This document shows positions 5,683 to 23,679 of a stretch of DNA of 64,000 bases, one piece after another (position 1 is the first letter of the stretch; each line of letters begins with the position of its first letter). Location of the stretch: contig JADZEY010000089.1 of assembly GCA_020850315.1 (NCBI GenBank), forward strand, positions 1,022-65,021, given 5' to 3'. The position numbers were made by a program, and so were the translations under genes. Source of the stretch: Armatimonadota bacterium (GTDB taxonomy: Bacteria > Bacteroidota > Ignavibacteria > OLB7). The notes under the pieces were generated by a model that did not search any database, was not told where the DNA came from, and was given only the letters and a program-made list of their open reading frames with translations.

Positions 5683-8241
5683 CTATCGCTCACTTGTTCC
5701 CTCATCTTCGCCCTTGTGGCCCGCTGCGGTGGGGGGCTTGGGCGTTGCTGCTTTCCGTGTGGCTGTGCGCTTTGGCTGTGCTGGCGCGCTGCTTTGTGCG
5801 CTCTCCTCCACCTGTGGCTTGCTTGCTTTGGATGCCGTAGCTGCGGCCTTTTTTGCGGGGCGTTTGGCTGCTGGCTTGGGTTGTGCTTGTTCGGCCACTT
5901 CTGCTTTTACTGTTGGTGCCGCCGATTTTTTTGCCGCAGCTTTTTTAGCTGCTGCGGTTGTGGCTGGCAGCACAACGGCTGGTGTGCCCACGGTAGCCGC
6001 AGCCGCCGGAGGTGGGGAAGCGGGTGAGATAGATGGAGTTTTCATTGCTGGCCGATTTGCTGCCCCGACAGGCTCCGTTGGCGTTGGCTGTGCTATCGGG
6101 TTAGCTGGTCGCTGCTCTGCTGCTGCTGGCCGTTGTTGGCCGGGTTGCTCAGTTGGCCGTGGGTGCTGTTGTGCAGGTTGCTGCCGCTGATTCCCTTGCG
6201 GCTTGGCTTGCGCTGATCCAGATTGCTGGGTTGGCCGCTGTTGCTGCTGGCTACCCTGCTGTGGCCGCTGCTGTTGCTGTGCGGGTTGCTGGCGTTGCGG
6301 CTGATTTCCTTGTGGCTGCTTGGCTTGGGTTGATCCAGATTGCTGAGTTGGCCGCTGTTGCTGCGGCTGGCTACCCTGCGGTTGCTGTGGCCGCTGCTGC
6401 TGCTGTGCGGGTTGCTGGCGTTGCGGCTGATTTCCTTGCGGCTTGGCTTGGGTTGATCCAGATTGCTGAGTTGGCCGCTGTTGCTGCGGCTGGCTACCCT
6501 GTGGTTGCTGGGAGCGTGGCTGCTGCTGCTGGCTTCCTTGTGGGGTGGTCTGGGCAGTTCCGGCTGGCTGCTGTGGTCGCTGCTGGTTTCCCTGCTGTGG
6601 CTTCGGCTGTTGTTGTTGGGGTTGATTCCCTTGCGGCTTGGCTTGGGCTGTTCCTGTTGGTTGTTGCTGTTTTTGTCCCCCCTGCTGGCCGCGTTGTTGG
6701 GGTTGGTTTGCGGGCTTTGGTTGCTGTTGGGGCTTCTGCCCGTTGGTGGATTGCTGCCCGTTTGCTTGTTGCTGTGCGTTGGCTGGTTTTGCTTGCTCGG
6801 GCTGGCGGCGTAGCTGGATGAACTCAATCCGCAGCACATTTTTGGTCTCGGGGGTGATGCGATAGCGTTCGTCAAGCCTCATGCCGCATACCCAGATGAT
6901 GGTTTGGTCATCGGCCAGCACCAGCACGTCGCGCTTGGCATCCAACGCTATTTTTTCGTCAATCAGGAAATCGCTGATCTTTTTCTCACCATTCATCCCC
7001 AACGGCTGGAAGCGATCACCTTCGCGCCAGGAGCGCAAGGTTAATTTTTTCGGCAGACGGTCGGCATCAATAAACTCTATCGAGCGGTTGTTATTGAATT
7101 GGATATTGTTGTTTTTCATCCGTCGGGTTACCAGCCGCGCTTTCCCTGTCTCGGTGGTTGTTCCGGTGTCGAAACTCCGCTCGAACGGAATAAACGGCGG
7201 TGGATCGCGCCGGATCACCAACGTTTCGCGGTCGCGCAGGGCACTAATTCCATCAACGATTTCTGCTTTGCTTCCGGTTTCTTTCCAAACCAACCCCATT
7301 GTGCGTTCCACAGCCGAGTGTGGGATTGGTGGAAGCTCGAACCGTTGGCACACCACCCGCTGCACCAGCTCCGATTGAATTGCTGGCAGCAGGTGTTTTA
7401 GTTGGTTCAGGTTCAGCTCAACAACATCGTTGCTGCGTGGTTCGTTGTTGCGCGATGCTGTCACCTGCTCGATGGCGGTTCGGACCGAGTGGCCCAGGTG
7501 CTGCTCAACGCCCCGCATGATGTCGGCAGTGGAGTTCAGCGTGCTGACAATGCTTGGGTTGAACTGCTGCAACGCCGGCAGCAGTTCTTGGCGGACGCGA
7601 TTGCGGAGGAACCGTGTGTTCTGGTTGGACTCATCCTCGCGCCATTGAATCCCTGCTTGCTGCACAAATTCCCGAATTTCACTTCTTCCGGCCCAGAGCA
7701 ACGGGCGGGCAAGGATCAGCCCACGCCCCAACGAGCGGACGGGGGGGATTCCGGCAAGCCCGGTAACGCCGCTTCCGCGAAGCAGGTTCATCAACAACGT
7801 CTCGGCGTTGTCGTCGGCGGTGTGGCCTGTTAGTATAATGGAGTATCCGTGGCGGCGGGCAACGCGCTCCAGAAATTGGTATCGGGCTTTGCGTGCGGCA
7901 TCTTCCAGCGAAAGTTTTTGCTCGGTAGCAAGGCGTTGGACTTCGGCCCGTCCGATAAAAATTTTCAATCCCCGCTCGCGTGCTTGCTCGTTGACGAACG
8001 CGGCATCCTTGCGCGATTCCTCGCCGCGCAATTCGTGGTCAAAGTGGGCAATGCCAACCTGAAGTTTCAGCAGGGGAGCAAGCCGCGAGACCATTTCCAG
8101 CAGTGCCATGGAGTCGGCACCGCCGCTAACGGCAATCAGCACCGATTCTTTTCCAAGCAGCATATCGTGCTTGCGAACGTAGGCCCGCATTTTCTGCTGG
8201 CATTTCTCAACAAACGTAGATGTTAGAATCATAAGCCGCAC
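5683..8241 (-). CDS. tilS: tRNA(Ile)-lysidine synthetase TilS fused to a ~390-aa low-complexity C-terminal extension. The extension has Gln/Pro-rich tandem repeats followed by a Lys/Ala-rich basic tail.
   Basis: The N-terminal ~460 aa have the PP-loop SGGADS, the HFDHELRGEES... region and a TilS C-terminal domain ending ...RIEFIQL. The same frame then continues without a stop through ~41-aa repeats (QQRPTQQSGSTQAKPQGNQPQRQQPAQQQQRPQQPQGSQPQ), a short Pro/Ala-rich segment, and an AAKKAAAKKSAAPTVK...KRPAKKAAATASK tail. The start is GTG at 8241 or ATG at 8232. Confidence 0.75.
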   Translation of the reverse strand: MRLMILTSTFVEKCQQKMRAYVRKHDMLLGKESVLIAVSGGADSMALLEMVSRLAPLLKLQVGIAHFDHELRGEESRKDAAFVNEQARERGLKIFIGRAEVQRLATEQKLSLEDAARKARYQFLERVARRHGYSIILTGHTADDNAETLLMNLLRGSGVTGLAGIPPVRSLGRGLILARPLLWAGRSEIREFVQQAGIQWREDESNQNTRFLRNRVRQELLPALQQFNPSIVSTLNSTADIMRGVEQHLGHSVRTAIEQVTASRNNEPRSNDVVELNLNQLKHLLPAIQSELVQRVVCQRFELPPIPHSAVERTMGLVWKETGSKAEIVDGISALRDRETLVIRRDPPPFIPFERSFDTGTTTETGKARLVTRRMKNNNIQFNNNRSIEFIDADRLPKKLTLRSWREGDRFQPLGMNGEKKISDFLIDEKIALDAKRDVLVLADDQTIIWVCGMRLDERYRITPETKNVLRIEFIQLRRQPEQAKPANAQQQANGQQSTNGQKPQQQPKPANQPQQRGQQGGQKQQQPTGTAQAKPQGNQPQQQQPKPQQGNQQRPQQPAGTAQTTPQGSQQQQPRSQQPQGSQPQQQRPTQQSGSTQAKPQGNQPQRQQPAQQQQRPQQPQGSQPQQQRPTQQSGSTQAKQPQGNQPQRQQPAQQQQRPQQGSQQQQRPTQQSGSAQAKPQGNQRQQPAQQHPRPTEQPGQQRPAAAEQRPANPIAQPTPTEPVGAANRPAMKTPSISPASPPPAAAATVGTPAVVLPATTAAAKKAAAKKSAAPTVKAEVAEQAQPKPAAKRPAKKAAATASKASKPQVEESAQSSAPAQPKRTATRKAATPKPPTAAGHKGEDEGTSER
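6150..6570. repeat. Tandem direct repeat of about 3.3 near-identical copies, period 117-123 bp, inside the tilS 3' extension
   Basis: Repeat units begin at about 6202, 6319 and 6442 with CTTGGCTTGGGTTGATCCAGATTGCTGAGTTGGCCGCTGTTGCTGCGGCTGGCTACCCTG.... The first copy has a 6-bp deletion. The repeats are in frame, so the protein repeats are 39-41 aa long. Confidence 0.85.
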
Positions 8242-10567: not shown

Positions 10568-11392
10568 ATGGCTATTTCAGCACAGGATGTAAAGACGCTC
10601 CGCGACCGTACCGGAGCGGGAATGGGCGACTGCAAAAAAGCCCTTGAAGAAGCCGCAGGCGACATGAATGCTGCTATTGAAATCCTTCGGAAGAAGGGCG
10701 CAGCAACTGCCAGCAAGCGCGCCGATAAAGATGCCAACGAAGGCGTGGTCGCCACGGCTACCTCCGATGACCGCTCCAGCGCGGCTATCGTTGAGGTAAA
10801 CTGCGAAACCGACTTTGTGGCCCGTAACGAGGAGTTCAGCTCCTTTGCCCGCAGCCTTGCCGCCCACGTGTTGGCCACCAAACCAGCAAGCATCGAGGCA
10901 CTGTTGGCCAGCGAACTGAACGGTGTGGCAATCCAAAACCAATTGAACGACCTGCTTGCCAAGTTCAACGAGCGGATTGAAATCCGCCGCTACGAAGTTG
11001 TGGAAACAAGCGGCGGCTACGTTGCCGACTATGTTCACAACGGCGATAAGCTGGGTGTGTTGGTAGAGTTCGGCGCAGCCAATGACGGCTTGCACGCTGT
11101 GGGGCGCGACGTTGCCATGCAGGTGGCAGCTATGAACCCGGGCTACGTTCGCCGCGAGGAAGTGCCGACCGACGTGCTGACCAAAGAGCGCGAAATCTAC
11201 GCCGAGCAGATGCGGGGCGAAGGGAAACCGGAAGCGATTATTGAGAAGATTGTGACCGGACGGCTGGAGAAATACTACGCCGACAACGTTTTGCTGGAGC
11301 AGTCCTTCGTGAAAGATTCGGCCAAGGTTATCAACGAGGTGATCGGCGGAGTCAGCATCGTCCGGTTTATCCGATTCAACCTGGGGCAGTAA
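10568..11392 (+). CDS. tsf: Elongation factor Ts
   Basis: The N-terminal UBA-like segment AISAQDVKTLRDRTGAGMGDCKKALEE matches EF-Ts, as does the dimerisation core. The gene lies downstream of rpsB, in the conserved rpsB-tsf arrangement. Confidence 0.92.
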   Translation: MAISAQDVKTLRDRTGAGMGDCKKALEEAAGDMNAAIEILRKKGAATASKRADKDANEGVVATATSDDRSSAAIVEVNCETDFVARNEEFSSFARSLAAHVLATKPASIEALLASELNGVAIQNQLNDLLAKFNERIEIRRYEVVETSGGYVADYVHNGDKLGVLVEFGAANDGLHAVGRDVAMQVAAMNPGYVRREEVPTDVLTKEREIYAEQMRGEGKPEAIIEKIVTGRLEKYYADNVLLEQSFVKDSAKVINEVIGGVSIVRFIRFNLGQ

Positions 11393-11447
11393 TCGTGCCG
11401 ATTAGGGATTACAGTCTAGACTATCCCTGACACAATCAAACTATGTG

Positions 11448-11507
11448 CCCCGCAAAACGTGGGGATGCACAAACAAGCCGCAAGCAGTCCTGCTTGCGGC
11501 TTGTTTG
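11448..11507 (+). terminator. Two consecutive stem-loops downstream of tsf, a putative terminator
   Basis: The first stem-loop is CCCCGCAAAACGTGGGG. It is followed by a perfect 18-bp-stem hairpin, CAAACAAGCCGCAAGCAG-tc-CTGCTTGCGGCTTGTTTG. The U-tract is weak. Confidence 0.5.
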
Positions 11508-11615
11508 CTGAACAGTCTTGCCGAACAGTGAGTACGCGCCGGCCACAGCCGCTAAAAAATGCTCACTTTGCTCCATCCTTCCTCACTGTACCGGATGGCT
11601 ATAATCCGAGTATCG

Positions 11616-11666
11616 AAAAAAAAAACAGCCTACCGTCGTGACGGTAAGCTGTTGTTGTCTCTTTGT
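11616..11666 (-). terminator. Rho-independent terminator for the minus-strand gene 11689..12234
   Basis: A10 on the plus strand (T10 on the minus strand) lies directly 3' of the hairpin CAGCCTACCGTC-gtga-CGGTAAGCTG. TTGTTGTCTCTTT follows on the plus side, so it may be bidirectional. Confidence 0.7.
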
Positions 11667-11688
11667 CGTGTGCCGGGCTGGGGGGGGA

Positions 11689-12234
11689 TTAGGAAGCCAC
11701 CCCAGCTTTTTGCGCTTGCTGCTTTGCAACATCGCCGAACTTCACGACGGTTTTTGCCATTTGCTCTGGGCTATTCATTTGTGGGTTCAGGCGGTGCATC
11801 ATCATCAAGTTGCCGCCATCCATCCGCATGGTTCCCACGGGGGAACTGGTATTGAATTCGGAAATCTGGCTTTCCACTTTCTGCTTCATGTCGGCTGGCA
11901 TCGCGTCCACGCTTGTCACCATCCCGTTGATGTCAACTTCTTGGTCGCTTACGTGGCTGATAAATGCCACTTCTTTCCCCGATCCAGCATCCACCAGCGC
12001 GATTTTATCGCCACGCATTTCTGCTTTCCAAGCTCCAGATGCGCTGCACTCGTTTTGCAAACTGGTGTACAGGGTCTGCATGGTGGCTTGTGCATCTTTC
12101 ACGTTGCCCGAAAGATTGTTTCCGGCGGCAGGGGCTGTGCTGTTGCCAAACATCCCCGAGTTGTACAATCCGAACCCAATGGCGGCGATAACCAGCACCG
12201 AGCCAAGGATAGTTAACAGTGTTTTCTTGTTCAT
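11689..12234 (-). CDS. Hypothetical membrane-anchored or secreted protein
   Basis: The sequence begins MNKKTLLTILGSVLVIAAIGFGLY (signal/anchor). A good SD site (AAGAGG) sits 8 nt upstream of the ATG. I recognise no conserved family. Confidence 0.5.
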   Translation of the reverse strand: MNKKTLLTILGSVLVIAAIGFGLYNSGMFGNSTAPAAGNNLSGNVKDAQATMQTLYTSLQNECSASGAWKAEMRGDKIALVDAGSGKEVAFISHVSDQEVDINGMVTSVDAMPADMKQKVESQISEFNTSSPVGTMRMDGGNLMMMHRLNPQMNSPEQMAKTVVKFGDVAKQQAQKAGVAS

Positions 12235-12480
12235 GGTCGTTTCCTCTTGTTGTTGTTGTGTTGTTGATATCGGCTCAACAGTTCCTCATCGTTGTTCTGT
12301 TGCCACAGTGTTGTTGCTGTTCCCACTGCGGCCTTGTTCATCACCCGATCTGAGGGGGACTGGCCTTTTGAAATTGCTGTTTCGGTTATTGCGGTTGCAA
12401 AGTTAGAAGGAAAATCGTTGCAATGTTCATCCTCTGATTTCTTGCAGAACAAAAACGTGGCGTTGCTGTGCGCTGCTTGG

Positions 12481-12993
12481 TTATTTTTTTGCAAGGAAGT
12501 AAGCAAGCATTGGGGAAATCGCCAGAATCACTACGGGACGAACTCCAATCCCCGCTCCCTGCTGAAGCGATAGCCCCATCACCAGCGTAAGCTTCACAAG
12601 AAAGCCAGATAGATGGCCGCTGAACCGGCGGCCCATTGCCGTGGAAAACCATTGGCTAACGGAGTGAATCGGGATACGCGCTCCAAGTGCGGAGATAACG
12701 CTGGGGCACTCCTGTGCTGCTTTGCGCTCCAACGGGGAAACTGGGCCCCGCCGCCGCAATGCTGCCACCAGCACAAGAAGCATCATGGCCATCAACGCAA
12801 CTCCCAAATACTTCAGTGCCGGAACCTGAACCCCAAGCCCCCAGGCTTGTAGGCCAATCACGACTATTCTGCCAGACATATTGCCTAATAACTGTGCTGG
12901 CGGGGTGCCGACAATAGCGTTCTCAATCTTTGCTGAAACCCAGTTGTGCAGCATGGCGGGTACGGTTGCTATCGGATTGATTACGGCGTTCAT
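12481..12993 (-). CDS. Hypothetical integral membrane protein
   Basis: It is 170 aa with several hydrophobic helices. I recognise no family signature. Confidence 0.45.
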   Translation of the reverse strand: MNAVINPIATVPAMLHNWVSAKIENAIVGTPPAQLLGNMSGRIVVIGLQAWGLGVQVPALKYLGVALMAMMLLVLVAALRRRGPVSPLERKAAQECPSVISALGARIPIHSVSQWFSTAMGRRFSGHLSGFLVKLTLVMGLSLQQGAGIGVRPVVILAISPMLAYFLAKK

Positions 12994-13273
12994 GATGTTG
13001 CTCTCTGGTTACGTTTGGGCTTGCTGATCTTTTTTTCTGATGCAACCATACGGAGCTTCTCTGCCGAAAGCACTACGGATAAACTACGGAGGCATCCGTA
13101 CCGCCACTGCGAACCGAAAAAAGGGGGCAGCATCTGATAGGCAGTAACTTCCAGCCTGATGCTTGGTTACTTTGCCGGGCGCGAATCTTTTTTGGCATCA
13201 TGCCGTTCGGGCACGGCATTTCTTCCGAATCGCCCCCCGCTATTTCCGCTCATTGTTCCCGTTCTGTTTCCCA

Positions 13274-16200
13274 ATGGATGCACTCACCAGTTTCCTACAT
13301 CACGGCACGCTTCCTTTTACCGGGCGTGGCGACCAGATTGAGCAGTTGCTTGCTTTTTGGCGTTCCACTCCCGATGTCTATGCCATGCAGATTGCGTTGG
13401 TGTTTGGCGAGGCTGGGGTGGGGAAAAGCCGATTAATAGATGAACTTGGCCCGCAAGTAATCCACAACGAGGGCCTGCTGATCCGGTTGAAACTGATCCC
13501 CGGGGCCACCATCTCCTTTGCCAGCCTGATTGCCCGCGCAATCCGCTGGAACGCCACCGCACGCGGGTTGCTGAAAGAACCGATTGTCGAATCACAAGGA
13601 GAGTCGGTGGCGGCATTGCACCGGCTTGCACGGCTGCGCCACACATTGCTGGTGATCGAGGATATCCACCTTCTCCCGCGTGAGTCAATTGAGGATTTGC
13701 GGCAACTGTTGGATGGACTATCGGGGGAGTTTATCAAGGTGATGCTGCTGGCGCGCCCCGTTGCTTTTGAATCGCGTGGATTGCTGGAGCCTTATCTCAC
13801 CCAAGAACTCCACTTGCGTGGCATGAACCTTCAGGAGTTGGCGGTGTTGTGGGAGCGGCTTTTCCTTTCCAAAGCGGATTCAGCGGTGATTGAGACGTTG
13901 GCGAACGTCACCTTGGGCAATCCATTGGCCGTTCGGTCGGCATTGCGTGGGGCGTTGCAGTCGCGGTTGCTGTTGTTGGATTCGGCAGGGGCGCGTTGGG
14001 CTCCGGCGGTGGCGATTGATCTGTTTAAGGAGTGCCTGCAACGCTACGTCGGGACGTTATCGGAGGGGATGGGGGCACACCTTGAACCGGATGAGCTTCG
14101 GGCTGCCGAGCAGCTGGCAACGTTAGGGGAAGTGTTTGCCCGCGAGGCCGCAGTGGCGTTGCTTCCGAACCTCCCAGAAATGCTGCCGATACTTCTGCAC
14201 AAAGGCATTTTGGTGGTTACGTCGGCTCCGTCGCCACTGCCACACACGGGTGATGGAACCGCTATCTACACCTTTACCCACACCTTGCTGCATCGCCATT
14301 TGGTGGCAACCGCTGTGGCCAACCGTGGCGTGAACGGTGCTGCGATTATTGCTGTTGTGGCCGGGCGGCTTCCCCTGTACTCCATTCTCCCATTGGAGTT
14401 ATTAACCACGCATGGCTCCGGTAACGCCCCGATTGCAGCGGTGCAAGGTGCCTTGAAGGTGTTGACCGATATGGTTATCCCCTTGACCGAAGGGACCGAC
14501 TGGCGATTTGCTACCCCAGTGTTGCAAGCCGCCAAAAGTTTGTTCGCTGCCTGCCAGCCGCACCTGAGCCAAGCCGAACAGCGGCAGCAGCAGTTGTTGC
14601 TGAAGGGGCTTGAGCTTTCGGTGCGCTATGCCGCTAGCGATTACGAGACGGTGCGGCAGGGGGTGGGTGAGTATCTGCAGCTTACGCAGCCGATGGAGTC
14701 GTTCGATGTTGTTCTGCGTCGGTACCATGCGTTATCGTTGCTGATGACGGTTGAGATGTACCAGACCAGTCAGTTCCCAGAAGAAACTTGGCGAGAACTT
14801 CAGGAGCTACAACAGCGATTTCCCGAAATTGAACTAACCGAGGAATACGTCCAGAATCTTACCAGCATTATCGGCGTGGTGATGTTGGTGCTGAACGACT
14901 ACACGTTGCTACGCCAGCTGGAACCCCGTTTGGAGGAGTTGCGGCAATCTGAGCAGACACCACCCGGGGTGCGCCGCCGGCTGCTGATCGGTATCGCCCC
15001 GTACCTTCTAACGCTGTACGACACCGAAGAACAACTTCAGCAGCGGCTGGCGATTGCTACAGAGTTGGAAGCGATTGCCGACGAACATTGGCTGGTGATT
15101 GTCAGCGGCCTTGTGCGGTTGTACGATGCCGCAGGGTTGTATCACCAGATGAACGCCGAGATTGAGCGGCGGCTTCCCCACGCCCGGCGGCTGGGCCATG
15201 TGAAGTCGGAACTCAGCTGGCGGTTTCGCAGCCTGATCTCCAAAGCTGCGTTTGGCACGCCCCCCCAGCAGATTATTGAACAGGTTGCCGAGATGTTTGC
15301 CGACCATTTCGGCGTGATGCCCTCCAGCGTCCGTTACCAGTTGGGGGATCGCCTCTGCTTTATTGCGTTGATGCTTGATCAGCCCGATCTGGCCAAACAG
15401 GTGTTTCACCAGTATAACCAGGGCGCGCCCGAACCGTTGGAGATGGGGGTGTTGCTGGGGCTGCACAACGGAACCCTTGATGAGCTTCCTGAACATCTTC
15501 CGGTGCGGGCGTTTCGGGAGTTCGAGGCGTTCGTGCAGGCTGCGTTGCTGCGCCAAACACTATCCGAACCGCAGATGCTGCGAGTTGTTCAGGAGGTGCT
15601 ATCCCCGGCGTTTTTGCACGCCGGCGAGCTGCTGATTGTTCATGCTGCATTCCAACTGTTGGAAGCCCGCATCATGCCACGATTGCAGGATCGTGCAATC
15701 ATCAGCCAGATTCAGGAGGCAATGCGGCAAACAATGGCGGGGGTGATGCGGTGGATGCACCAGCGGGGAATGTTTGCATTTATGAGGCCAATGGTGGCCC
15801 GCTATTCCCATCTACTAACCGAACCGACCGCCGCCGTATGGGAACAGCAAATCCAAACGTTGGAGGAACATTATCAATCGGGAGGGGGAGGCAAGCCGGA
15901 TCGCTGTGCCATCCAGATCACGATGGTGGGGGAGATTTCCGTGCAGGAACCGGGCCGCACTCCCCAGGCGGTTCGCGGGGCACGCAACCGCACCTTGCTT
16001 GCCTTGATGGTGGCCAACCAGATGCTCCGGCGGCCACTGACCAACGCAGAGTTCTGCCAGATTGCAACCGGGGTCGAGCAGGACGATGAGTACGCCCAAC
16101 GCCTAACCCGCATGGCGATATCGCGGCTTCGCGGACTGATTGGGCGCAACGCTATTCTCACCAAGTCGGGCCCCCCTCGGCTGAACCTCGATACTGTTCA

Positions 16201-16588
16201 GGTTGACCTGCTCCAGGCTCAACAGCAGATTGATAGCGCCCTGGCTGCCGCCAACGAAATGGCGTTGTTCCGGGCGTGGTCGGCGATGATTGCCGCGCTG
16301 AAGATCGTGCGGGGTGAAGTTCCGTTCCCCACACAGTACGAACGGTTTTTTGAAGCCGCCCGCGATGACTTCGAGCACCGCCTCCGCTCGGCACTCCTTC
16401 ATGTTGTGCGGCTTCTGCTGGAAGAAGAGGACTTTCACTATGCCGAAGAATTACTGCGCCATGCCATGCAGGCGATGCCAGGTGATCCAGAGGTCTCGGA
16501 CCTTCTGTCAAACGTGCTGCTGCAACAACACCAACGCGCCGAAGCCGAACGGTTGCGGCTAACTGCACTCCGATTGGCTGCTGACTGA
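13274..16588 (+). CDS. Large STAND/AAA_16 ATPase transcriptional regulator with a helical/TPR-like middle region and a C-terminal SARP output (OmpR-type winged helix plus BTAD)
   Basis: Walker A FGEAGVGKSRL and Walker B LLVIEDIHLL lie near the N-terminus. The C-terminal region ...RNRTLLALMVANQMLRRPLTNAEFCQIATG...ISRLRGLIG...RLNLDTVQVDLLQAQQQID... followed by ...ALFRAWSAMIAALKIVRGEVPFP... matches the SARP DNA-binding and BTAD pattern. The start was trimmed from 13163 to the ATG at 13274 (MDALTSFLHHGTLPFTGRGDQIEQL). Confidence 0.7.
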   Translation: MDALTSFLHHGTLPFTGRGDQIEQLLAFWRSTPDVYAMQIALVFGEAGVGKSRLIDELGPQVIHNEGLLIRLKLIPGATISFASLIARAIRWNATARGLLKEPIVESQGESVAALHRLARLRHTLLVIEDIHLLPRESIEDLRQLLDGLSGEFIKVMLLARPVAFESRGLLEPYLTQELHLRGMNLQELAVLWERLFLSKADSAVIETLANVTLGNPLAVRSALRGALQSRLLLLDSAGARWAPAVAIDLFKECLQRYVGTLSEGMGAHLEPDELRAAEQLATLGEVFAREAAVALLPNLPEMLPILLHKGILVVTSAPSPLPHTGDGTAIYTFTHTLLHRHLVATAVANRGVNGAAIIAVVAGRLPLYSILPLELLTTHGSGNAPIAAVQGALKVLTDMVIPLTEGTDWRFATPVLQAAKSLFAACQPHLSQAEQRQQQLLLKGLELSVRYAASDYETVRQGVGEYLQLTQPMESFDVVLRRYHALSLLMTVEMYQTSQFPEETWRELQELQQRFPEIELTEEYVQNLTSIIGVVMLVLNDYTLLRQLEPRLEELRQSEQTPPGVRRRLLIGIAPYLLTLYDTEEQLQQRLAIATELEAIADEHWLVIVSGLVRLYDAAGLYHQMNAEIERRLPHARRLGHVKSELSWRFRSLISKAAFGTPPQQIIEQVAEMFADHFGVMPSSVRYQLGDRLCFIALMLDQPDLAKQVFHQYNQGAPEPLEMGVLLGLHNGTLDELPEHLPVRAFREFEAFVQAALLRQTLSEPQMLRVVQEVLSPAFLHAGELLIVHAAFQLLEARIMPRLQDRAIISQIQEAMRQTMAGVMRWMHQRGMFAFMRPMVARYSHLLTEPTAAVWEQQIQTLEEHYQSGGGGKPDRCAIQITMVGEISVQEPGRTPQAVRGARNRTLLALMVANQMLRRPLTNAEFCQIATGVEQDDEYAQRLTRMAISRLRGLIGRNAILTKSGPPRLNLDTVQVDLLQAQQQIDSALAAANEMALFRAWSAMIAALKIVRGEVPFPTQYERFFEAARDDFEHRLRSALLHVVRLLLEEEDFHYAEELLRHAMQAMPGDPEVSDLLSNVLLQQHQRAEAERLRLTALRLAAD

Positions 16589-16592
16589 GGTG

Positions 16593-16653
16593 AGATATAC
16601 TTGCAGCAAAGGAGTTTGCGAAGCCTTAACCCCTTGGCTGCAAGTAGTATATC
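16593..16653. terminator. Long imperfect inverted repeat between convergent genes
   Basis: GATATACTTGCAGC ... GCTGCAAGTAGTATATC flank a 30-nt loop. It lies between the stop of the STAND regulator (16588) and the stop of the minus-strand gene (16703). Confidence 0.35.
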
Positions 16654-16702
16654 ATGCAGGCTGAGTGTTGATTGGGCGGCGTATGGCAGCCGGGCAGGGG
16701 AC

Positions 16703-17263
16703 TCACGCTTTTTTCTTGAATACAGCCTTGAAGACCACTGCCGTAGCTCCGCCAATCATGACGGTGCTGCTGATGGATAGTTCACGCGGGGTGGTGAACT
16801 CCGCCACAATCTCTTCCAGTAGCGGCGCGCCATCGGCCACCCCTTCGTACCGGAATTCTAGTCGCTTGTCGTTCGTCCATTTACCACTGTGGTCATGGGT
16901 TTCGCCAAAGCTGGTGACGCTAAACAGATGAAGTGCGTCGCGCCCAGCATCGTAGCCGAACATGTCGGTTTCATGGTACTCGCCCATGCCGGGTATTGTC
17001 CCATGAACCGTTGACATCAACCCCCATCCGCCAGAGATTACCTTATTGCTCATTGATAGTGGAAACCGGAGCGTTTGATCCCCCATTGTGATCGTTGCAT
17101 TGCCGGCCCATTCCCCTTTTGCAATCGTGATGATTCGCTTGATTTGATCTGAGACCTTGGGTATCTCTTGTTGTGCGTTGGTGGGAATGGAGGTTGCCAG
17201 TTGCAGCAAGATTGCCGCAGCGATAGCGGCAGCGTTGTTCCAGATTGATGATGCTGTGGACAT
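16703..17263 (-). CDS. Hypothetical secreted protein, possibly DUF1579/lipocalin-like
   Basis: It has an N-terminal signal (AAAIAAAILLQLATSIPTNAQQ) and is 186 aa. It lies directly downstream of the LuxR-family gene on the same strand. Confidence 0.5.
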   Translation of the reverse strand: MSTASSIWNNAAAIAAAILLQLATSIPTNAQQEIPKVSDQIKRIITIAKGEWAGNATITMGDQTLRFPLSMSNKVISGGWGLMSTVHGTIPGMGEYHETDMFGYDAGRDALHLFSVTSFGETHDHSGKWTNDKRLEFRYEGVADGAPLLEEIVAEFTTPRELSISSTVMIGGATAVVFKAVFKKKA

Positions 17264-17465
17264 TGTGAAGCCTTTTATTCGTTGCTGTTGTTGGTTTTCT
17301 GATGACCCCGACTGACTACCTTGCCGAAATCATCGGTGCAAAACTACCCTCTACACATGGCGGTGGCATCCGTGCCAGCACGTAATTTCAGCGAGCGGGA
17401 ACACGTAATTTTTCAAGAACAGATGGGTAGGAAAGGGGTGGGGAACGAATGGTGAAGAGGGAGGC

Positions 17466-19199
17466 TCATTTTTTTTGTTTCCACACCCAAGCGGTTGCAA
17501 CGGCACGGGCGGTGCGGCCGGTGGCCCCAAGTTTCAGATAGATATTCGAGACGTGCCGCTCCACTGTTCGGATGCTTAAGAAAAGTTCCGTGGCAATCTC
17601 CTCGTTGCTTTTCCCGGCAGCAACCAGCATCAAAACTTCTGTTTCGCGGCGTGTAAAGTCATCCGAAGCAGAGCTATAGGGGGCAGTAGTGTGGCCGTGC
17701 GATGTGGAGATAAGGGCTGTTGCGCGTTCTGCGTCGCGTAGCGCGCCAAGCCGTTGCAGTGATTGTTCGGCAGCCCTGGCTTCTTCGCCAGCGCGTGTGT
17801 GATCGCCCAGTTGGTAAAGTAGGTGTGCAAGCTCAATCCGGGCGCATCCCCCTTCAAATGGCATGGGGGTGCGGTCATATAAATCAATGGCATCTTCAAG
17901 GTGAAGCAAGGCTTCGCGAAGGTTCCCCGTGGCTCCGGCAACTGCGCCATCGGCTGCATGAATTGCAGCGTGCAAGGGTAATGTGTTGAACCGGCTTGCA
18001 ATCTCCCGAAGTTCCGCCAGTGTGTGCTTGGCTTCCTGTCCGTTCCCCGCCGCAAGTTGCGCACGCAGCAAAAGCTCTAATCCCGAAACTCGTTCGATAC
18101 GGTCGGTAAGGGGAACGCGGCGAAGGTAGCGTTCAATCAGCCCGATTGCCCCGATAGGATTACTGTTGTGCAATTGTATAGCCGCGCGCCCCATCATCGA
18201 AAGTGGGTGGGATGAGGTTTCGGCAAACAATGCTTCAGCTTCGGCAAACCTCCCTTGCCTACGCCGAAGCTCTCCGATCCGAACGGTGCAGGCCGCCACT
18301 TGTCCTGGGCGGCATTCGCGCAGCATCGTGGCGGCATTCATCAGTTCTTGCTCCGCTTCTTCCCACCGCCCTTGTGTCATCAGGATGCTGGCATATTGTG
18401 TGCGGCATGACCCAAAGACAGAGGCCATGCGCCAGCGGCTACTGAATTTGGAAATACGGATGCACCATTGCGCGGCGCGGTCGTAGTCACGGATCCGTTC
18501 GCAGGCGGCAATCAGGTAGCAGCAGGTGCTGCCAATGGCGTTGATGTCGTCGGTTTCCCCTGCGATTGCGGCGGCGGTGGCTTCATCCAGCAATCGCATC
18601 CCCTCCGCTGGTTCGCCTTGGCTCACAAGTGCCAACCCGCGCAGTGCCAATGCCAGCATCTCGATGTCAGGTGCATCAAATGTGCGTCCGTAGCGCAATG
18701 CACTATCAGCATAGAGTATCGCTTCGGTGGGGTCTTTTTGAATCAGCAGCGCAACATGGGCTTGAAGCATGGTAAGAAATCCGGCTTCGCGGCATGGGCC
18801 GCATTTTTCAATGGCACGTAGCCCACGCGATAGCCACCCGATAGCAATCGCAAAGTCGCCACGGAACTCACCATAATCATTTGCTACCAGTCCGGCTACC
18901 CGCGCCATTCCTTGGTGATTATTTGCTTCATGGTGCAAAGCGTAGGCCCGTTCGCGGGCTGCGATGGTGGCGGTTGCATCGTTCAAAAAATAGGTGGCGG
19001 CTGCAATGGCTTCCAACGCTTCGGTGGTTTCTTGGTGGCCAAGTGCCTTTCCAAAACAATCGGCGGCAAGCTCCCACTCCCCCTGGGAAAAGGCTCGGTT
19101 CCCGGCGTTCAGATGGCTGATGTAATCGGCAGTGGGCATTGCTTGGCAGTACGAAAAGTAACCGGAAATAGATGAATCAGCCGAGGGAGGAGCGAACAT
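17466..19199 (-). CDS. LuxR-family transcriptional regulator with an N-terminal TPR/helical-repeat domain, comparable to the C-terminal half of MalT
   Basis: The C-terminal HTH, RRETEVLMLVAAGKSNEEIATELFLSIRTVERHVSNIYLKLG, is a LuxR/GerE helix-turn-helix. Long helical repeats precede it, and no P-loop is present. The start is ambiguous (ATG complement at 19197-19199 or 19137-19139); the 729-aa ORF extension lacks support. Confidence 0.65.
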   Translation of the reverse strand: MFAPPSADSSISGYFSYCQAMPTADYISHLNAGNRAFSQGEWELAADCFGKALGHQETTEALEAIAAATYFLNDATATIAARERAYALHHEANNHQGMARVAGLVANDYGEFRGDFAIAIGWLSRGLRAIEKCGPCREAGFLTMLQAHVALLIQKDPTEAILYADSALRYGRTFDAPDIEMLALALRGLALVSQGEPAEGMRLLDEATAAAIAGETDDINAIGSTCCYLIAACERIRDYDRAAQWCIRISKFSSRWRMASVFGSCRTQYASILMTQGRWEEAEQELMNAATMLRECRPGQVAACTVRIGELRRRQGRFAEAEALFAETSSHPLSMMGRAAIQLHNSNPIGAIGLIERYLRRVPLTDRIERVSGLELLLRAQLAAGNGQEAKHTLAELREIASRFNTLPLHAAIHAADGAVAGATGNLREALLHLEDAIDLYDRTPMPFEGGCARIELAHLLYQLGDHTRAGEEARAAEQSLQRLGALRDAERATALISTSHGHTTAPYSSASDDFTRRETEVLMLVAAGKSNEEIATELFLSIRTVERHVSNIYLKLGATGRTARAVATAWVWKQKK

Positions 19200-19458
19200 A
19201 AGAAAACAGCAGGGGAGGATGCTCCTGTAAAAATTGTACGATGCGGCGGTAGCCGTTTCGTGGCCACCGATAGCCAATAGCGTACCTTTGCACCGTAGAT
19301 ATACTCGGGTGCGTTGAGATTGCGAAATTCGATCCCTGTGGGCCTTGTAGATACTCGGCTTCGCGGGTAGCAATTTCGCAAACTGAAAGCACGTGAGTAT
19401 AAAAGCGGGGAAATCCCGCACGCCGTGCCTGCCCCCAACACCGATTCCCAATTTCCCG

Positions 19459-19962
19459 ATGAAAATCTTCGACGTTCTATTCTTGCTGGTTATCGCTGGG
19501 CTTGGCATCATCTCCCTGTTCGGTGGATGTACACAAAAAATCGGAAGGACGGCCGGGCCGCTGGCAACCGCACCAATCGGTGTGGAACGCGAGATTTGGG
19601 AGCGAATTAACCAGCACCGCCGAACGATGCAGATGCCGGCACTGGAGTACAGCATGGCAATGGCTGAGCAAGCGCAAACTCACTCGGAGCAGATGGGAAG
19701 CGGTGCGGTTCCGTTTGGGCACCAGGGGTTTGATGAACGCGCCGAGGCGATTGCCGAAACCGTGCAATTCAACGGGATTTCCGAAAACGTTGCCTGGTGT
19801 TCCGATACCAAAGCCATTGCCGACACCGCCGTAAAATTGTGGCTTGCCAGCCCAAGCCACCGCAAGAATATCGAAGGCGATTTCACCTTTACCGGGATTG
19901 GTGCCGCGCTGAACCAGCGTGGCGTTTGGTATTTCACACAGATTTTTGCGAAGCAGAGGTAG
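19459..19962 (+). CDS. CAP/SCP/PR-1 domain lipoprotein (YkwD-like)
   Basis: It begins [24 protein letters not shown], a lipoprotein signal with a lipobox Cys. The CAP-domain motifs [15 protein letters not shown] and VWYFTQIF are present. Confidence 0.6.
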
Positions 19963-21124: not shown

Positions 21125-21264
21125 GTCGGTTCTGATTGCTAAGTGGTTGTAATCAAATAGTGAAAAGGGAATTTTCCGCGATACCCGCGTTGCTGCCAAC
21201 GGATCACATTGCAGCAGCCGTTGCTTCCGTAAATCTAACGATGCTTACCGTTCACACAGCCTAC

Positions 21265-23679
21265 ATGAAAAATCTTCTTGCCAGCGTACTGTTCCTTGTA
21301 GTTCTATCCGTTGCGGCGCAATCGCAACCGGTGAAATCGTACCACACCACGCTGTTCGGCACCCTTGATCCCGACATCCAGAAGCAGGGAACGTATTCCG
21401 CGCTAACCGGCTACGCTGCCCCCGATGGCCGCGAGTACGCATTGCTGGGGGGCTTCACCGGAACCTACGTGATTGATGTTACCGATGCACCGCTGAAGCT
21501 GGTCAGCTTCATTCCCGGCCCAACAAGCCTGTGGCGCGAGATGAAAACATGGGGTTCCTACGGCTACGTTGTAAGCGAAGGGGGAAGCGGGTTGCAGATT
21601 ATTGACCTAACGCAGCTTCCGCTGAAAGCTGCATTGCTCCGTGCCGACACCTCAGCCTTCCGAACCGCCCACACAATTTCTGTGGAGGGGAATTATCTGT
21701 ACGTGAACGGAACCAACCCCGAAGCTGGCGCAAACCAGGGGACGCTGATTTTTGACCTTTCGGTGGACGCAACCCGCCCACGGTTAGTTGGGAAGTGGAC
21801 CGGCCGATACGTTCACGATTGCAGCGTCCGAAACGACACCCTGTACGCCGCAGCAATCCTTGATGGCCAGCTTGATATTGTCTATTTGGGAAAAGACCGG
21901 AAAAACCCGGTGCAAATAACCAATGTGAAATATCCCGGCGCAGGAACCCACAACGCCGAAACCACGATTGATGGCCGCTACATCCTGACAAGCGATGAGG
22001 TTGGCAGCACCCCAAAAACATTGAAAGTGTGGGACAGGACTGATATCCAAAACATCAAAAAAGCTGCTGACTGGACTCCTGTTCCCGGGGAGATTATCCA
22101 CAACGTTCATATCAAGGGGAACCATGCGTTTATTGCATGGTACAGCGCAGGAACCCGTGTTGTTGACATCAGCAACCCAACCAACCCGGTGCAGGTTGGT
22201 TACTACGACACCTACCCCGAAGCGGGTGAGTTTTTTGCGGGGAATTGGGGAACGTACCCCTACCTTCCCAGCGGTAAAATCTTAAGCAGCGACATGCAAA
22301 CCGGGCTGCACGTTTTCACGTTCGATGGCGCAACGCCTGGGCGGGTAAGCGGGCGGGTGATTGATGCCCTCACCAACAAGCCAATCCCCTTTGCACGTGT
22401 GGACCTTACCGATCTGAAAATCCGTGTCATCACCGACACGCTTGGGCGGTACACCTTTGCTGGCGCGGCGGATTCCCTGAATTGGTCAGCATCCATCCAA
22501 GATTACTTGCCCCGCTCCGGCAAATTTTACATTGACCCCAAGGGGGCGCAGCACGACATCTACTTATCCAAACTACCGCTGGCCGATCTCACCCTTCGGG
22601 TGGTTGACGACGGGACAAACCAGGCTATTCCCAACTTCGGTTGGCGGCTAACCGAGCGTTCGTTTGCCGAAGGCGTTGCCCCCAACGGATTCCAAACATT
22701 TTCGCTTCCGGCGGACAGCACTTATCAGATGTTTGTTGGGGCGTGGGGCTACCGCACTCAGTTGGTGCAGTTTGGCTCCAAAGGTGGCAACACGCAGGAA
22801 GTGCGGCTGAAGCGGGGATACTACGACAACGCAGAAGTTGATTTGGGATGGAAGATAGAGGACACCGCCGATGATGCAGTTTCTGGAAAGTGGGAGCGGG
22901 GTGTTCCAATCGGGACGGTGGCAGATATTCCACGGCGCGGGGAAACCAAAATCCAACCCGACAGCGACCGCACAGCCCAGCCCGGCGACCATGCTTTCGT
23001 TACCGGAATCACTGGAACGGAAGGGAGCAACATCGGTGCCGCCGACGTTGACAACGGGATCACACGGCTAACCTCGCCAGCATTTGATCTATCCGGTTGG
23101 TACGACCCTCACATCACCGTGAACCTTTGGTACTCGCGTGGTGGAAACGTTCGGGGGATTGATGACACCATGCACGTTCTGCTATCGAACGACAACGGCA
23201 AAACCTGGGCCGTGATTGACAGAATCACCGACTCGGCGGATGCCTGGAAACGCTACGAGTATCAAGTGCAGAAATTTCTGGAACCTACATCGCAGATGCT
23301 ATTTCGGATAGAAGCAAGCGATCTGGGGGAGCCATCGTTAGTGGAAGCAGCAATGGATGAATTTGAGATAGAAGAGCGAGGCGACGCAACTGGGGTTGAT
23401 GAAAAAATGACCGCAAGTGGAATCGCAACCACGCTGCAACCGAACCCATTGGTGGCTGGGCAGGGGAGGGTGATACTGAATCTTGCCAACTCAATCAATC
23501 AGCTTCGCATTGAAGTATTCAATATCACAGGGGAGCGGGTGCTACAACTGCATGATGGCGCAGCCGCATCGGGTATCTTGAGCCTTCCGATTGATGCCAC
23601 ATCGGTAGCAGCAGGAAATTACCAATTGACCATCACTGCCGACGGGAACGTGTGGAGTAGGGAAGTGGTGGTACGGTAG
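21265..23679 (+). CDS. Secreted LVIVD-repeat beta-propeller protein with a carboxypeptidase-regulatory-like domain and a C-terminal Por/T9SS sorting domain
   Basis: It has a signal peptide (MKNLLASVLFLVVLSVAAQSQ) and a CarbopepD_reg-like segment (GRVSGRVIDALTNKPIPFARVDL). The last ~80 aa (LQPNPLVAGQ...LRIEVFNITGERV...AAGNYQLTITADG...) match the T9SS C-terminal-domain pattern. Confidence 0.7.
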   Translation: MKNLLASVLFLVVLSVAAQSQPVKSYHTTLFGTLDPDIQKQGTYSALTGYAAPDGREYALLGGFTGTYVIDVTDAPLKLVSFIPGPTSLWREMKTWGSYGYVVSEGGSGLQIIDLTQLPLKAALLRADTSAFRTAHTISVEGNYLYVNGTNPEAGANQGTLIFDLSVDATRPRLVGKWTGRYVHDCSVRNDTLYAAAILDGQLDIVYLGKDRKNPVQITNVKYPGAGTHNAETTIDGRYILTSDEVGSTPKTLKVWDRTDIQNIKKAADWTPVPGEIIHNVHIKGNHAFIAWYSAGTRVVDISNPTNPVQVGYYDTYPEAGEFFAGNWGTYPYLPSGKILSSDMQTGLHVFTFDGATPGRVSGRVIDALTNKPIPFARVDLTDLKIRVITDTLGRYTFAGAADSLNWSASIQDYLPRSGKFYIDPKGAQHDIYLSKLPLADLTLRVVDDGTNQAIPNFGWRLTERSFAEGVAPNGFQTFSLPADSTYQMFVGAWGYRTQLVQFGSKGGNTQEVRLKRGYYDNAEVDLGWKIEDTADDAVSGKWERGVPIGTVADIPRRGETKIQPDSDRTAQPGDHAFVTGITGTEGSNIGAADVDNGITRLTSPAFDLSGWYDPHITVNLWYSRGGNVRGIDDTMHVLLSNDNGKTWAVIDRITDSADAWKRYEYQVQKFLEPTSQMLFRIEASDLGEPSLVEAAMDEFEIEERGDATGVDEKMTASGIATTLQPNPLVAGQGRVILNLANSINQLRIEVFNITGERVLQLHDGAAASGILSLPIDATSVAAGNYQLTITADGNVWSREVVVR

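Follow-up and report, generated by a model that had tools for sequence, protein, structure and literature searches.

The 1104-residue regulator described here combines MalT-like logic with SARP output. An N-terminal STAND ATPase (NOD) module is followed by a long helical region and, at the extreme C-terminus, by what family profile and predicted fold identify as a SARP module. The protein belongs to a coherent, populous family in the FCB/Kapabacteria lineage for which we found no published description and, in the upstream sequences compared, direct repeats at 11- or 22-bp spacing are over-represented in front of the genes of this family in particular. We consider it rather likely that the protein is a one-component, nucleotide-switched STAND transcription factor, whose SARP output would act on phased repeats in autoregulation and/or in control of a divergent operon.

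Domain architecture of the regulator

The gene lies on the forward strand of the 64-kb stretch of DNA that was analysed as a whole (the window). Its longest reading frame opens upstream at TTG 13163; the start was placed at ATG 13274, since the product of this start aligns with more than 15 relatives from its first residue onward. The ~1100-aa regulator that a first-pass annotation had put at 13274-16588 is a real ORF encoding 1104 aa, and the order proposed for it (P-loop NTPase, helical region, then SARP) was borne out by Pfam, family profile and fold. NCBIfam gave no meaningful match to the regulator. The features of the gene are as follows.

13274..16588, + strand: regulator gene (NOD-sensor-SARP, 1104 aa), stop codon included; from the ORF list, translation and family alignment
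13274..14428, + strand: NOD module, residues 1-385, P-loop NTPase plus helical and winged-helix domains; from Pfam, AF2 and Foldseek
13406..13429, + strand: Walker A, GEAGVGKS, residues 45-52; from alignments of 44 and of 17 sequences
13643..13663, + strand: Walker B, LLVIED, residues 124-130; from the same two alignments
13916..13930, + strand: STAND GxP motif, GNPLA, residues 215-219; from family alignments
14273..14293, + strand: winged-helix motif, FTHTLLH, residues 334-340; from the family alignment and AF2 model
14429..15883, + strand: all-helical repeat region, residues 386-870 (~480 aa), presumed sensor; from the AF2 model
15908..16204, + strand: predicted OmpR-type winged-helix DNA-binding domain, residues 879-977; from family profile, AF2 and Foldseek
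16205..16585, + strand: predicted BTAD (TPR-like activation domain), residues 978-1104; from Pfam matches of relatives and fold

The N-terminal P-loop NTPase of the earlier annotation was confirmed. Pfam matched AAA_16 (E = 9.1e-11, residues 14-149) and AAA_22 (E = 1.1e-7) in the regulator sequence; among its relatives AAA_16 was matched in 44 of 44 and NB-ARC in one, weakly. The 44- and 17-sequence alignments share a Walker A consensus, GEAGxGKS, in which E46, G48, G50, K51 and S52 are invariant, as are E129 and D130 of Walker B; R161 is a further invariant position in the family alignments. In the GNPLA motif, which we take to be of the type known from NB-ARC domains as 'GLPLA', G215 and A219 are invariant in the 44 sequences, while N216 and L218 are kept in at least 90% of these and are invariant in the 17-sequence set. 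The FTHxLLH motif (F334, H336 and H340 invariant in the 44-sequence alignment) directly follows a beta-hairpin (E313-316/E331-334) in the AF2 model, at the start of helix 337-349. By its position it may be the analogue of the MHD switch of NLRs and the F/Y-HD switch of AfsR (bioRxiv 10.64898/2026.09.02.748808). The full-length AF2 model has a pLDDT of 87.9, and its best Foldseek matches in the PDB are the STAND protein 6mfv, the NLRs NRC, Roq1 and Sr35, Apaf-1, and ORC/Cdc6, all with a probability of 1.00. With Walker A, Walker B, the GxP motif and the winged-helix histidine all present, the NOD is a STAND-type P-loop NTPase.

The long helical or TPR-like region annotated downstream of the NOD is likewise seen in the model, where residues ~386-870 are entirely helical (about 24 helices, pLDDT mostly above 85). 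No Pfam family matched this region, and no GerE, TPR_MalT or WHD_MalT match was found anywhere in the regulator. By the precedent of other STAND proteins, the helical region presumably acts as the sensor.

For the C-terminus a separate sub-alignment was needed, because the full-length family profile matched only designed helical repeats in the PDB. The profile of the last 235 residues matched AfsR residues 38-257 (E = 2.5e-6), its BTAD part covering AfsR 120-257. The AF2 model of this module has a pLDDT of 95.3, and a Foldseek structure search with it agreed with the annotated SARP, the six best PDB matches being AfsR and EmbR (230-234 columns, TM 0.61-0.66). Pfam gave a divided answer: it recognizes AAA_16 in the regulator but neither Trans_reg_C nor BTAD at E ≤ 1, a result that the first-pass annotation had itself set down as formally counting against its reading. 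In this protein the C-terminal winged helix and BTAD are seen by profile and fold only. Among the relatives, Pfam BTAD matched 19 of 44 (best E = 1.3e-6) and Trans_reg_C none of 44; in the regulator itself there is a weak TPR_19 match at residues 1048-1094.

That Pfam detects Trans_reg_C in none of the 44 relatives, and that W74 and K95, contact residues in AfsR, are not kept, would suit a C-terminal module that does not bind DNA, but serves as a TPR-like protein-interaction or RNAP-docking adaptor while another factor binds the repeats. However, the winged-helix fold is predicted in its entirety, with a pLDDT above 95, and superposes on AfsR/EmbR over both subdomains, and the RLR motif of the recognition helix (R951, L952, R953) is near-invariant in the family. 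In the family profile alignment R951 and R953 coincide with AfsR R92 and R94, which contact DNA (PMC10936776). We regard an adaptor of this kind as improbable, and take the last ~230 residues, as judged by family profile and fold only, to be a complete SARP module consisting of an OmpR-type winged helix and a BTAD.

Relation to known systems and spread of the family

STAND transcription factors are well known, and so are SARPs. The order of an AAA_16-type NOD, a helical repeat sensor and a C-terminal DNA-binding output is that of MalT, and from it one would expect the protein to self-associate on repeated sites in dependence on inducer and ATP. The NOD profile gave only marginal matches against the PDB, the sole transcription regulator among them being MalT at a non-significant E of 0.06. 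MalT differs in its output, a LuxR/GerE HTH rather than an OmpR-type winged helix with BTAD, and the sensor of the regulator lacks the TPR_MalT match; GerE and TPR_MalT are instead found in the neighbouring gene at 17466. The earlier description of the protein as MalT-like, the LuxR module being replaced by a SARP, holds for both the domain order and the output domain.

The large SARPs of Streptomyces such as AfsR (SARP-NB-ARC-TPR) contain the same three kinds of module, and the SARP module is homologous to that of AfsR over its whole length (E = 2.5e-6, TM 0.63-0.66). The 11/22-bp phasing of AfsR and other SARPs is also matched by candidate operators of the family. In contrast, the SARP module is N-terminal in AfsR and C-terminal here (residues ~879-1104), in agreement with the annotated inversion of the AfsR order, with the NOD at the N-terminus; the NOD of AfsR is of NB-ARC type whereas that of the regulator is AAA_16-like; and the large SARPs belong to Actinomycetota, whereas this protein comes from the FCB/Kapabacteria lineage and has no biosynthetic gene cluster around its gene. 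A rearranged AfsR was considered and rejected, given the AAA_16 and NB-ARC counts among the relatives and the absence of the AfsR NOD from the PDB matches of the NOD profile. The literature treats SARPs as activators of actinobacteria whose DNA-binding module is N-terminal (PMC10972967, PMC10936776), a position that holds for the small, medium, large and SARP-LAL classes (PMC10972967; bioRxiv 10.64898/2026.09.02.748808). In its lineage and its neighbours the regulator does not fit the picture of SARPs as actinobacterial, usually cluster-situated activators of secondary metabolism.

The SARP-LAL proteins (PimR, FilR, SanG) also contain both a SARP module and an AAA_16/LAL-type ATPase, but there the SARP comes first and the ATPase half second, whereas here the order is reversed and the ~480-aa helical region is inserted (PMC10972967). 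PimR acts on the gene of a LuxR-type regulator, and a LuxR-type regulator is a conserved neighbour here (PMC10972967); the surroundings of the LuxR gene of the window yielded no site of SARP type. EmbR of Mycobacterium tuberculosis (SARP + FHA) shares the SARP fold (232-234 columns, TM 0.61-0.65) but has a C-terminal FHA domain, is controlled by Ser/Thr phosphorylation and contains no NTPase. The best full-length structural match is the PH0952-type STAND-TPR protein 6mfv (E = 4.8e-9, 765 columns), in which a NOD is followed by a helical-repeat sensor; its global TM is low (0.23/0.34) and the match includes no SARP output.

Among defence proteins, STAND NTPases that have a large repeat sensor are common (PMC13581612), and a few relatives of the regulator give weak NACHT/nSTAND matches in Pfam. 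An anti-phage or conflict STAND (Avs/bNACHT-like), with the winged helix as an effector or sensor accessory, nevertheless appears very improbable. A PADLOC search of the regulator returned no families at E ≤ 0.1, the protein contains no nuclease, TIR or other killing effector, and its output domain is a transcription-activator module. Moreover, the local synteny is stable across related genomes and the wider context of the gene is one of housekeeping functions (ribosomal proteins, EF-Ts, KDPG aldolase), together with genes without a known family.

Homology searches found 162 homologs of the regulator, more than 100 of them full length, and about 340 clusters at 50% identity whose representatives match at E ≤ 1e-30. 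Members are ~1100 aa long, and tandem paralogs are frequent among them in Kapabacteria/Ignavibacteria-like MAGs. In all 150 family representatives listed the SARP module stands at the extreme C-terminus. A pattern scan of genome contigs yielded only 5 family loci, its generic Walker A pattern swamping the results.

Gene neighbourhood and phased repeats

The regulator gene is flanked by genes on the opposite strand, and much of this arrangement is retained in two orthologous contigs (L042 and L043, whose regulators are 88% and 77% identical in protein sequence).

11689..12234, - strand: 181-aa protein, hydrophobic anchor at the N-terminus; synteny shared with L042 and L043
12481..12993, - strand: 170-aa predicted membrane protein, divergent; conserved in L042 and L043
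12994..13273, no strand assigned: divergent intergenic region of 280 bp between the 170-aa gene (- strand) and the regulator gene; from the ORF map and orthologue alignment
13049..13091, + strand: candidate operator, TACGGAG plus two copies of ACTACGGA; from alignment with L042 and L043
13160..13195, + strand: second conserved block, GGTTACTTTGCCGGGCGCGAATCTTTT; conserved in the orthologue alignment
16703..17263, - strand: 186-aa protein, convergent with the regulator gene, N-terminus resembling a signal peptide; synteny shared with L042 and L043
17466..19655, - strand: TPR_MalT + GerE (LuxR-type) regulator, 729-aa ORF; from Pfam

The adjoining TPR-LuxR regulator and small secreted protein had both been noted before; they lie on the - strand, and their arrangement is kept in both orthologous contigs. 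The 729-aa LuxR-type ORF is probably over-extended, its orthologs being 559-580 aa long and a CAP-domain gene overlapping it on the + strand. The 181-, 170- and 186-aa neighbours matched no Pfam family even at E ≤ 1.

The ~280 bp ahead of the gene had been annotated as a structured leader. Neither such a leader nor a riboswitch was supported: the predicted fold of 12994..13273 has a z-score of -0.46, with 65 of 200 shuffled sequences folding as well, Rfam gave no match at E ≤ 1 over 11300..17600, and the region is a divergent intergenic region rather than a leader alone. A sigma-70 promoter scan of 12900..13400 returned no sites and so placed no promoter; this is uninformative, as promoters of other types are probably in use in the lineage.

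Within this region TACGGAG occurs at 13049-55 and the two copies of ACTACGGA at 13072-79 and 13083-90, exactly 11 bp apart, giving ACTACGGA-N3-ACTACGGA at 13072-13090. The first and second TACGGA copies are 25 bp apart and hence out of phase. The block is kept in both orthologous contigs, where its flanks have diverged. It is unique in the 64-kb window even at up to 2 mismatches, and among 60 loci it is present only at orthologous places. The GGTTACTTTGCCGGGCGCGAATCTTTT block could, speculatively, be a promoter element of the regulator gene.

Direct repeats bound by SARPs are spaced 11 or 22 bp (PMC10936776, PMC10972967). Regions upstream of family genes were accordingly scored for exact repeats of at least 7 nt at these two spacings. 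In the first set, 6 of 15 regions contained phased repeats, amounting to 7 repeats against 0.51 expected, a number that none of 2000 shuffles reached. In a replication set, 4 of 6 newly fetched loci contained them (P = 1.9e-5), and the upstream region of locus L063 carries at least four tandem 11-bp units. Both sets together give 10 of 21 family loci with exact 11- or 22-bp repeats, about half being without. Among promoter-bearing intergenic regions, phased repeats were present in 6 of 12 upstream of family genes versus 1 of 51 others. The distance between the repeats and the start codons of the family genes is 38-270 bp.

No 7-mer common to the family upstream regions survived multiple testing and the repeat units have no common sequence, so that no shared motif links them to the protein. 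This would again be compatible with a C-terminal adaptor, and some other factor could bind the phased repeats; the enrichment, which is specific to the regions ahead of family genes and absent from the control intergenic ones, speaks against such an adaptor.

The neighbouring genes raise another possibility, namely that the regulator mainly controls genes of secreted or T9SS-exported proteins, elsewhere or nearby, and that the repeats are incidental or serve feedback only. Por_Secre_tail or large secreted proteins adjoin family members at several loci (L043, L044, L045, L061, L063, L064 and L065), and in the window the regulator gene lies close to the genes of the 186-aa protein with its signal-peptide-like N-terminus and of an LVIVD/CarboxypepD_reg/FlgD_ig protein. 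Although such neighbours recur, the neighbourhoods of family members are otherwise highly variable. We do not claim an association of T9SS tails with the family because Por_Secre_tail proteins also occur elsewhere in the window, nor do we claim the secreted neighbours as its regulon. Furthermore, within the 64 kb of the window a SARP-type operator candidate is present only in the regulator's own divergent intergenic region; no further TACGGA-type phased sites were found in the window, including the promoters of the 186-aa, LuxR, 181-aa and secreted-protein genes. We judge control of mainly secreted-protein genes to be unlikely.

Proposed mechanism and its implications

According to the nucleotide-switched model that we favour, the NOD would hold ADP in the resting state, and the invariant His336 motif of its winged-helix domain would help to lock it closed. 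A putative ligand would bind the ~480-aa helical repeat region, whereupon nucleotide exchange would open the NOD and allow it to self-associate; ATP would thus act as the switch for oligomerisation. The C-terminal SARP modules would then line up side by side on direct repeats phased by 11 or 22 bp (one or two turns), as AfsR does on the afs box, and the BTAD would recruit RNA polymerase, leading to activation rather than repression. The best operator candidate in the window is the ACTACGGA pair with the third, TACGGAG copy at 13049. Because this candidate lies in the divergent promoter region, the likely targets would be the regulator gene itself and/or the divergent membrane-protein operon (12481..12993 and 11689..12234, - strand).

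More tentatively, the ~1100-aa regulators may form a lineage-expanded, ligand-gated toolkit of Kapabacteria/Ignavibacteria-like Bacteroidota, which would have arisen when a MalT-like STAND protein acquired a SARP output at its C-terminus in an independent fusion event, the paralogs each having their own 11/22-bp-phased operators upstream of their own genes. If so, oligomerisation of the NOD would be read out directly, the phased repeats of an array being filled cooperatively and with positive feedback, and both this mode of action and this phylogenetic range would be so far undescribed for SARPs.

The regulator family overturns no existing concept. It does show the same SARP module under strict conservation in another clade of STAND proteins, at their C-terminus, in hundreds of sequence clusters from an uncultured FCB lineage. 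If the proposed mechanism is correct, the SARP output would be a portable cassette, which a NOD switch can drive from its N-terminal or its C-terminal end, and the family would supply natural pairs of a regulator and a candidate operator, namely the phased repeats ahead of each paralog, that could be reused as orthogonal parts. It would also provide a handle on gene regulation in Kapabacteria, in which, to our knowledge, no transcription factor has been studied so far.

Domain architecture of the regulator

The regulator gene can be read on the + strand in its longest form from TTG 13163, and from ATG 13274 it encodes a protein of 1104 aa. Its relatives have in common an N-terminus of the form MxxLxDFLNHGxLPFxGR. 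More than 15 relatives on other contigs start aligning at residue 1 of the ATG 13274 product, and therefore the coordinates of the first-pass annotation, 13274..16588, are right. The longer N-terminus of P0003 (1189 aa), the member in the orthologous contig L043 and the closest database protein so extended, was rejected as a start-codon miscall.

N-terminal extension of P0003
L043 8001..8258: 86 aa, spanning the conserved intergenic blocks; the family alignment begins at L043 8259

Pfam matched AAA_16 to residues 14-149 (9.1e-11) together with AAA_22, and TPR_19 weakly to residues 1048-1094; an NCBIfam scan of the regulator added nothing. In an alignment of 44 sequences the invariant residues include E46, G48, G50, K51 and S52 of Walker A, E129 and D130 of Walker B, R161-P162, G215 and A219 of GNPLA (the STAND 'GxP' motif), and F334, H336 and H340 of FTHxLLH. 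In the full-length AlphaFold model (pLDDT 87.9) the NTPase core is alpha/beta and is joined by a helical domain and a winged helix, with about 24 helices following at residues ~386-870; compared with the PDB as a whole, the model best matched the STAND-TPR protein 6mfv, plant NLRs, Apaf-1 and ORC/Cdc6. From these matches, the fold and the motifs, the N-terminal part is a STAND nucleotide-binding module (NOD), in agreement with the P-loop NTPase assigned to it at first pass. In the model the FTH motif lies immediately after the winged-helix beta-hairpin (313-316/331-334) and is thereby predicted to occupy the place of a known switch, as this position is that of the MHD or F/Y-HD switch of NLRs and AfsR (bioRxiv 10.64898/2026.09.02.748808).

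A winged helix plus BTAD had also been claimed for the C-terminus. Taken as literal Pfam matches this claim failed, since neither Trans_reg_C nor BTAD was found in the regulator even at E<=1; when 44 relatives were scanned singly, BTAD appeared in 19 and Trans_reg_C in none. Its substance held. A profile built from the last ~235 residues of 34 family members matched AfsR over the whole SARP domain length (profile positions 4-227 against residues 38-257 of chain 8hvr_I; E=2.5e-6), with generic TPR proteins ranking next. The AF2 model of the segment (pLDDT 95.3, pTM 0.89) folds as a beta-sheet, three helices, a hairpin and then seven helices, and its top six Foldseek matches in the PDB were AfsR (8k60, 8hvr) and EmbR (2ff4, 2fez), across 230-234 alignment columns at TM 0.61-0.66; only TPR fragments ranked below them. 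AfsR R92 contacts a base and R94 a phosphate (PMC10936776), and these align with the near-invariant R951 and R953 ('RLR' of the recognition helix). AfsR P79 aligns with a proline in the majority of the family; W74 and K95 are not conserved in the aligned sequences. Because profile, fold and the R951/R953 correspondence agree while W74 and K95 are unconserved, the C-terminal SARP module is real but divergent.

The regulator shares with MalT/LAL proteins the order NOD, sensor, DNA-binding output, and with AfsR the kind of output. This is the MalT-like order with a SARP in place of LuxR that had been proposed, and we consider the NOD-sensor-SARP architecture very probable. A permuted AfsR was ruled out: the NOD is AAA_16-like in all 44 sequences and NB-ARC-like in one, and the NOD profile did not retrieve the AfsR NOD from the PDB. 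MalT itself was reached by that profile only at E=0.06. In the small, medium, large and SARP-LAL classes the SARP is always N-terminal (PMC10972967; PMC10936776; bioRxiv 10.64898/2026.09.02.748808), and looking through full texts for a C-terminal SARP turned up no relevant case. PADLOC gave no match for the regulator, which counts against a known defence system.

Family distribution and gene neighbourhood

Among 5.8 billion proteins searched, 162 homologs were retrieved, more than 100 of them full length (~1090-1140 aa, 29-38% identity) and three close (99, 88 and 77% identity). The few that are named come from MAGs of Kapabacteria, Ignavibacteriae, 'Chlorobi bacterium CHB2', Bacteroidetes and 'Armatimonadetes'. 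Several carry the JGI automatic name 'DNA-binding SARP family transcriptional activator', and NCBI uses 'AAA family ATPase'. When the C-terminal profile was run exhaustively (HMM search) against 1.84 billion cluster representatives, the number of matches rose from 340 at E<=1e-30 to 436 at <=1e-10 and 6043 at <=1e-3. The module stood at the extreme C-terminus in all 150 representatives listed; in length these mostly fall at 1090-1140 aa, those below that range being apparent fragments. Large, conserved and uncharacterised, the family has only generic database labels. It is also multi-copy within genomes: three contigs carry two members in tandem or near each other, and the 162 homologs include protein pairs on contigs of equal length.

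Second family members (paralogs), directly in tandem with the matched gene or a few kb away from it
L043 1..2936
L045 4575..7910
L066 2032..5412

For ribosomal protein S2 the window shares 94% identity with 'Chlorobi bacterium CHB2' and 80-88% with Kapabacteria-type sequences, a lineage of the Bacteroidota (FCB group), and the remaining window is ordinary chromosome (FtsH, TilS, L13/S9/S2/EF-Ts, FtsK, CcmF, Omp85). The TilS-like frame at 5683..8241 (-), with PP-loop ATP_bind_3 and TilS_C, reaches 852 aa in its longest reading; this looks longer than expected for TilS and suggests a fusion or an over-extended frame.

Around the regulator, both orthologous contigs (L042 and L043) keep a block of a 181-aa gene (-), a 170-aa gene (-), the regulator (+), a 186-aa signal-peptide protein (-) and a TPR_MalT-GerE regulator (-), the last two being the convergent secreted-protein and TPR-LuxR genes noted at first pass. 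Pfam assigned no family to the 181-, 170- and 186-aa proteins. L042, the contig whose ortholog is 88% identical, carries a ComEC-like 703-aa gene between tsf and the 181-aa gene that the window lacks (11393..11688). In both contigs a weakly GNAT-like gene of 288 aa separates the regulator from the 186-aa gene, and it is likewise missing from the window (16589..16702). The 729-aa LuxR-type frame (17466..19655, -) overlaps a gene at 19393..19962 (+) with a CAP/SCP domain (5e-14); given this overlap and orthologs of 559 and 580 aa, its true start is probably near 19150-19200. Between the 186-aa and LuxR-type genes, within a strongly conserved block, two copies of the 10-mer CACGTAATTT stand 23 bp from each other (17379..17411), both nearly conserved in L042 and L043. 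The - strand of this block contains TAGTTTTG, which resembles a Bacteroidota -7 box, and GCCGAAATCA, and the block may be the operator and promoter of the 186-aa gene.

Neighbours of distant family members are variable; large Por_Secre_tail (T9SS) proteins turn up repeatedly, at most a possible association, and one distant member also has a MalT-type LuxR regulator nearby. At 45681..47675 (+) the window encodes an MtrC/c554-like multihaem cytochrome bearing a Por_Secre_tail T9SS sorting domain, and at 21136..23679 (+) an LVIVD/CarboxypepD_reg/FlgD_ig protein. The organism evidently uses T9SS-type secretion for large surface proteins.

Phased repeats upstream of family genes

A structured leader of ~280 bp had been placed before the regulator. 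This was not borne out: the 280 bp between the 170-aa frame (12481..12993, -) and the ATG folded no better than shuffles (z=-0.46) and had no Rfam match. Since the protein product of the 170-aa frame is conserved in L042 and L043 and gene callers annotate the frame, the interval is a divergent promoter region. Its alignment with the orthologous regions revealed two conserved blocks amid diverging sequence.

First conserved block
13036-13091: TACGGAG at 13049-55, and two copies of ACTACGGA starting at 13072 and 13083, exactly 11 bp apart

The arrangement TACGGA-N5-TACGGA occurs nowhere else in the window, even allowing two mismatches, and among 60 fetched loci only at the two orthologous places. 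SARPs bind direct repeats 11 or 22 bp apart (PMC10936776; PMC10972967). Exact direct repeats of at least 7 nt, at every distance from 8 to 45 bp, were counted in the 350-bp upstream regions of 15 independent family genes. Of 22 such repeats, seven lay at 11 or 22 bp, spread over 6 loci; shuffled regions gave a mean of 0.51, none of 2000 shuffles reached 7, and elsewhere in the same loci just 2.6% of such repeats had these distances. In a replication set of six further family loci, four upstream regions had 11- or 22-bp repeats (binomial P 1.9e-5; 5e-10 for the combined 10 of 21 loci).

Repeats in the replication set
L063 5836..5881: the 11-bp unit TTGCTTGATCT, perfectly repeated in tandem (at least 4 copies), with a family gene ~170 bp downstream
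L061: two copies of GTCTCTCTCT at 22 bp
L066: two copies of GTCTTACGAT at 22 bp
L065: two copies of GGTTGCA at 22 bp

The L063 array is the clearest operator-like array among the loci examined. With called genes, a phased repeat was present in 6 of 12 family-upstream intergenic regions versus 1 of 51 other promoter-bearing ones in the same loci. No 7-mer is shared family-wide by the upstream regions, and the repeat units differ between paralogs, as would be expected if specificities had diversified; the link between repeat and protein is therefore one of position and phasing only. The 11-mer GGTTGCATCAG (- strand, 13037..13047), within the conserved intergenic block, is identical to the second GGTTGCA copy and its flank in L065 (~5958..5968), upstream of a member at about 33% protein identity, and in L053, another of the loci examined, GATTGCA is repeated at 22 bp. 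The likeness could be accidental or reflect an element in common.

Proposed mechanism

By analogy with the established behaviour of MalT and AfsR, we infer a mechanism in which a ligand at the helical region would gate an ADP/ATP switch in the NOD, the protein would then self-associate and so set its C-terminal SARP modules on the phased repeats, and the BTAD would touch RNA polymerase. Among local outputs, autoregulation, the divergent operon or both seem most likely; the chances that the operator and autoregulation model is correct seem to us evenly balanced. Leaving aside the structured leader, what was observed at first pass is essentially right, and its interpretation has partial support. 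The regulator family now has a testable operator hypothesis.
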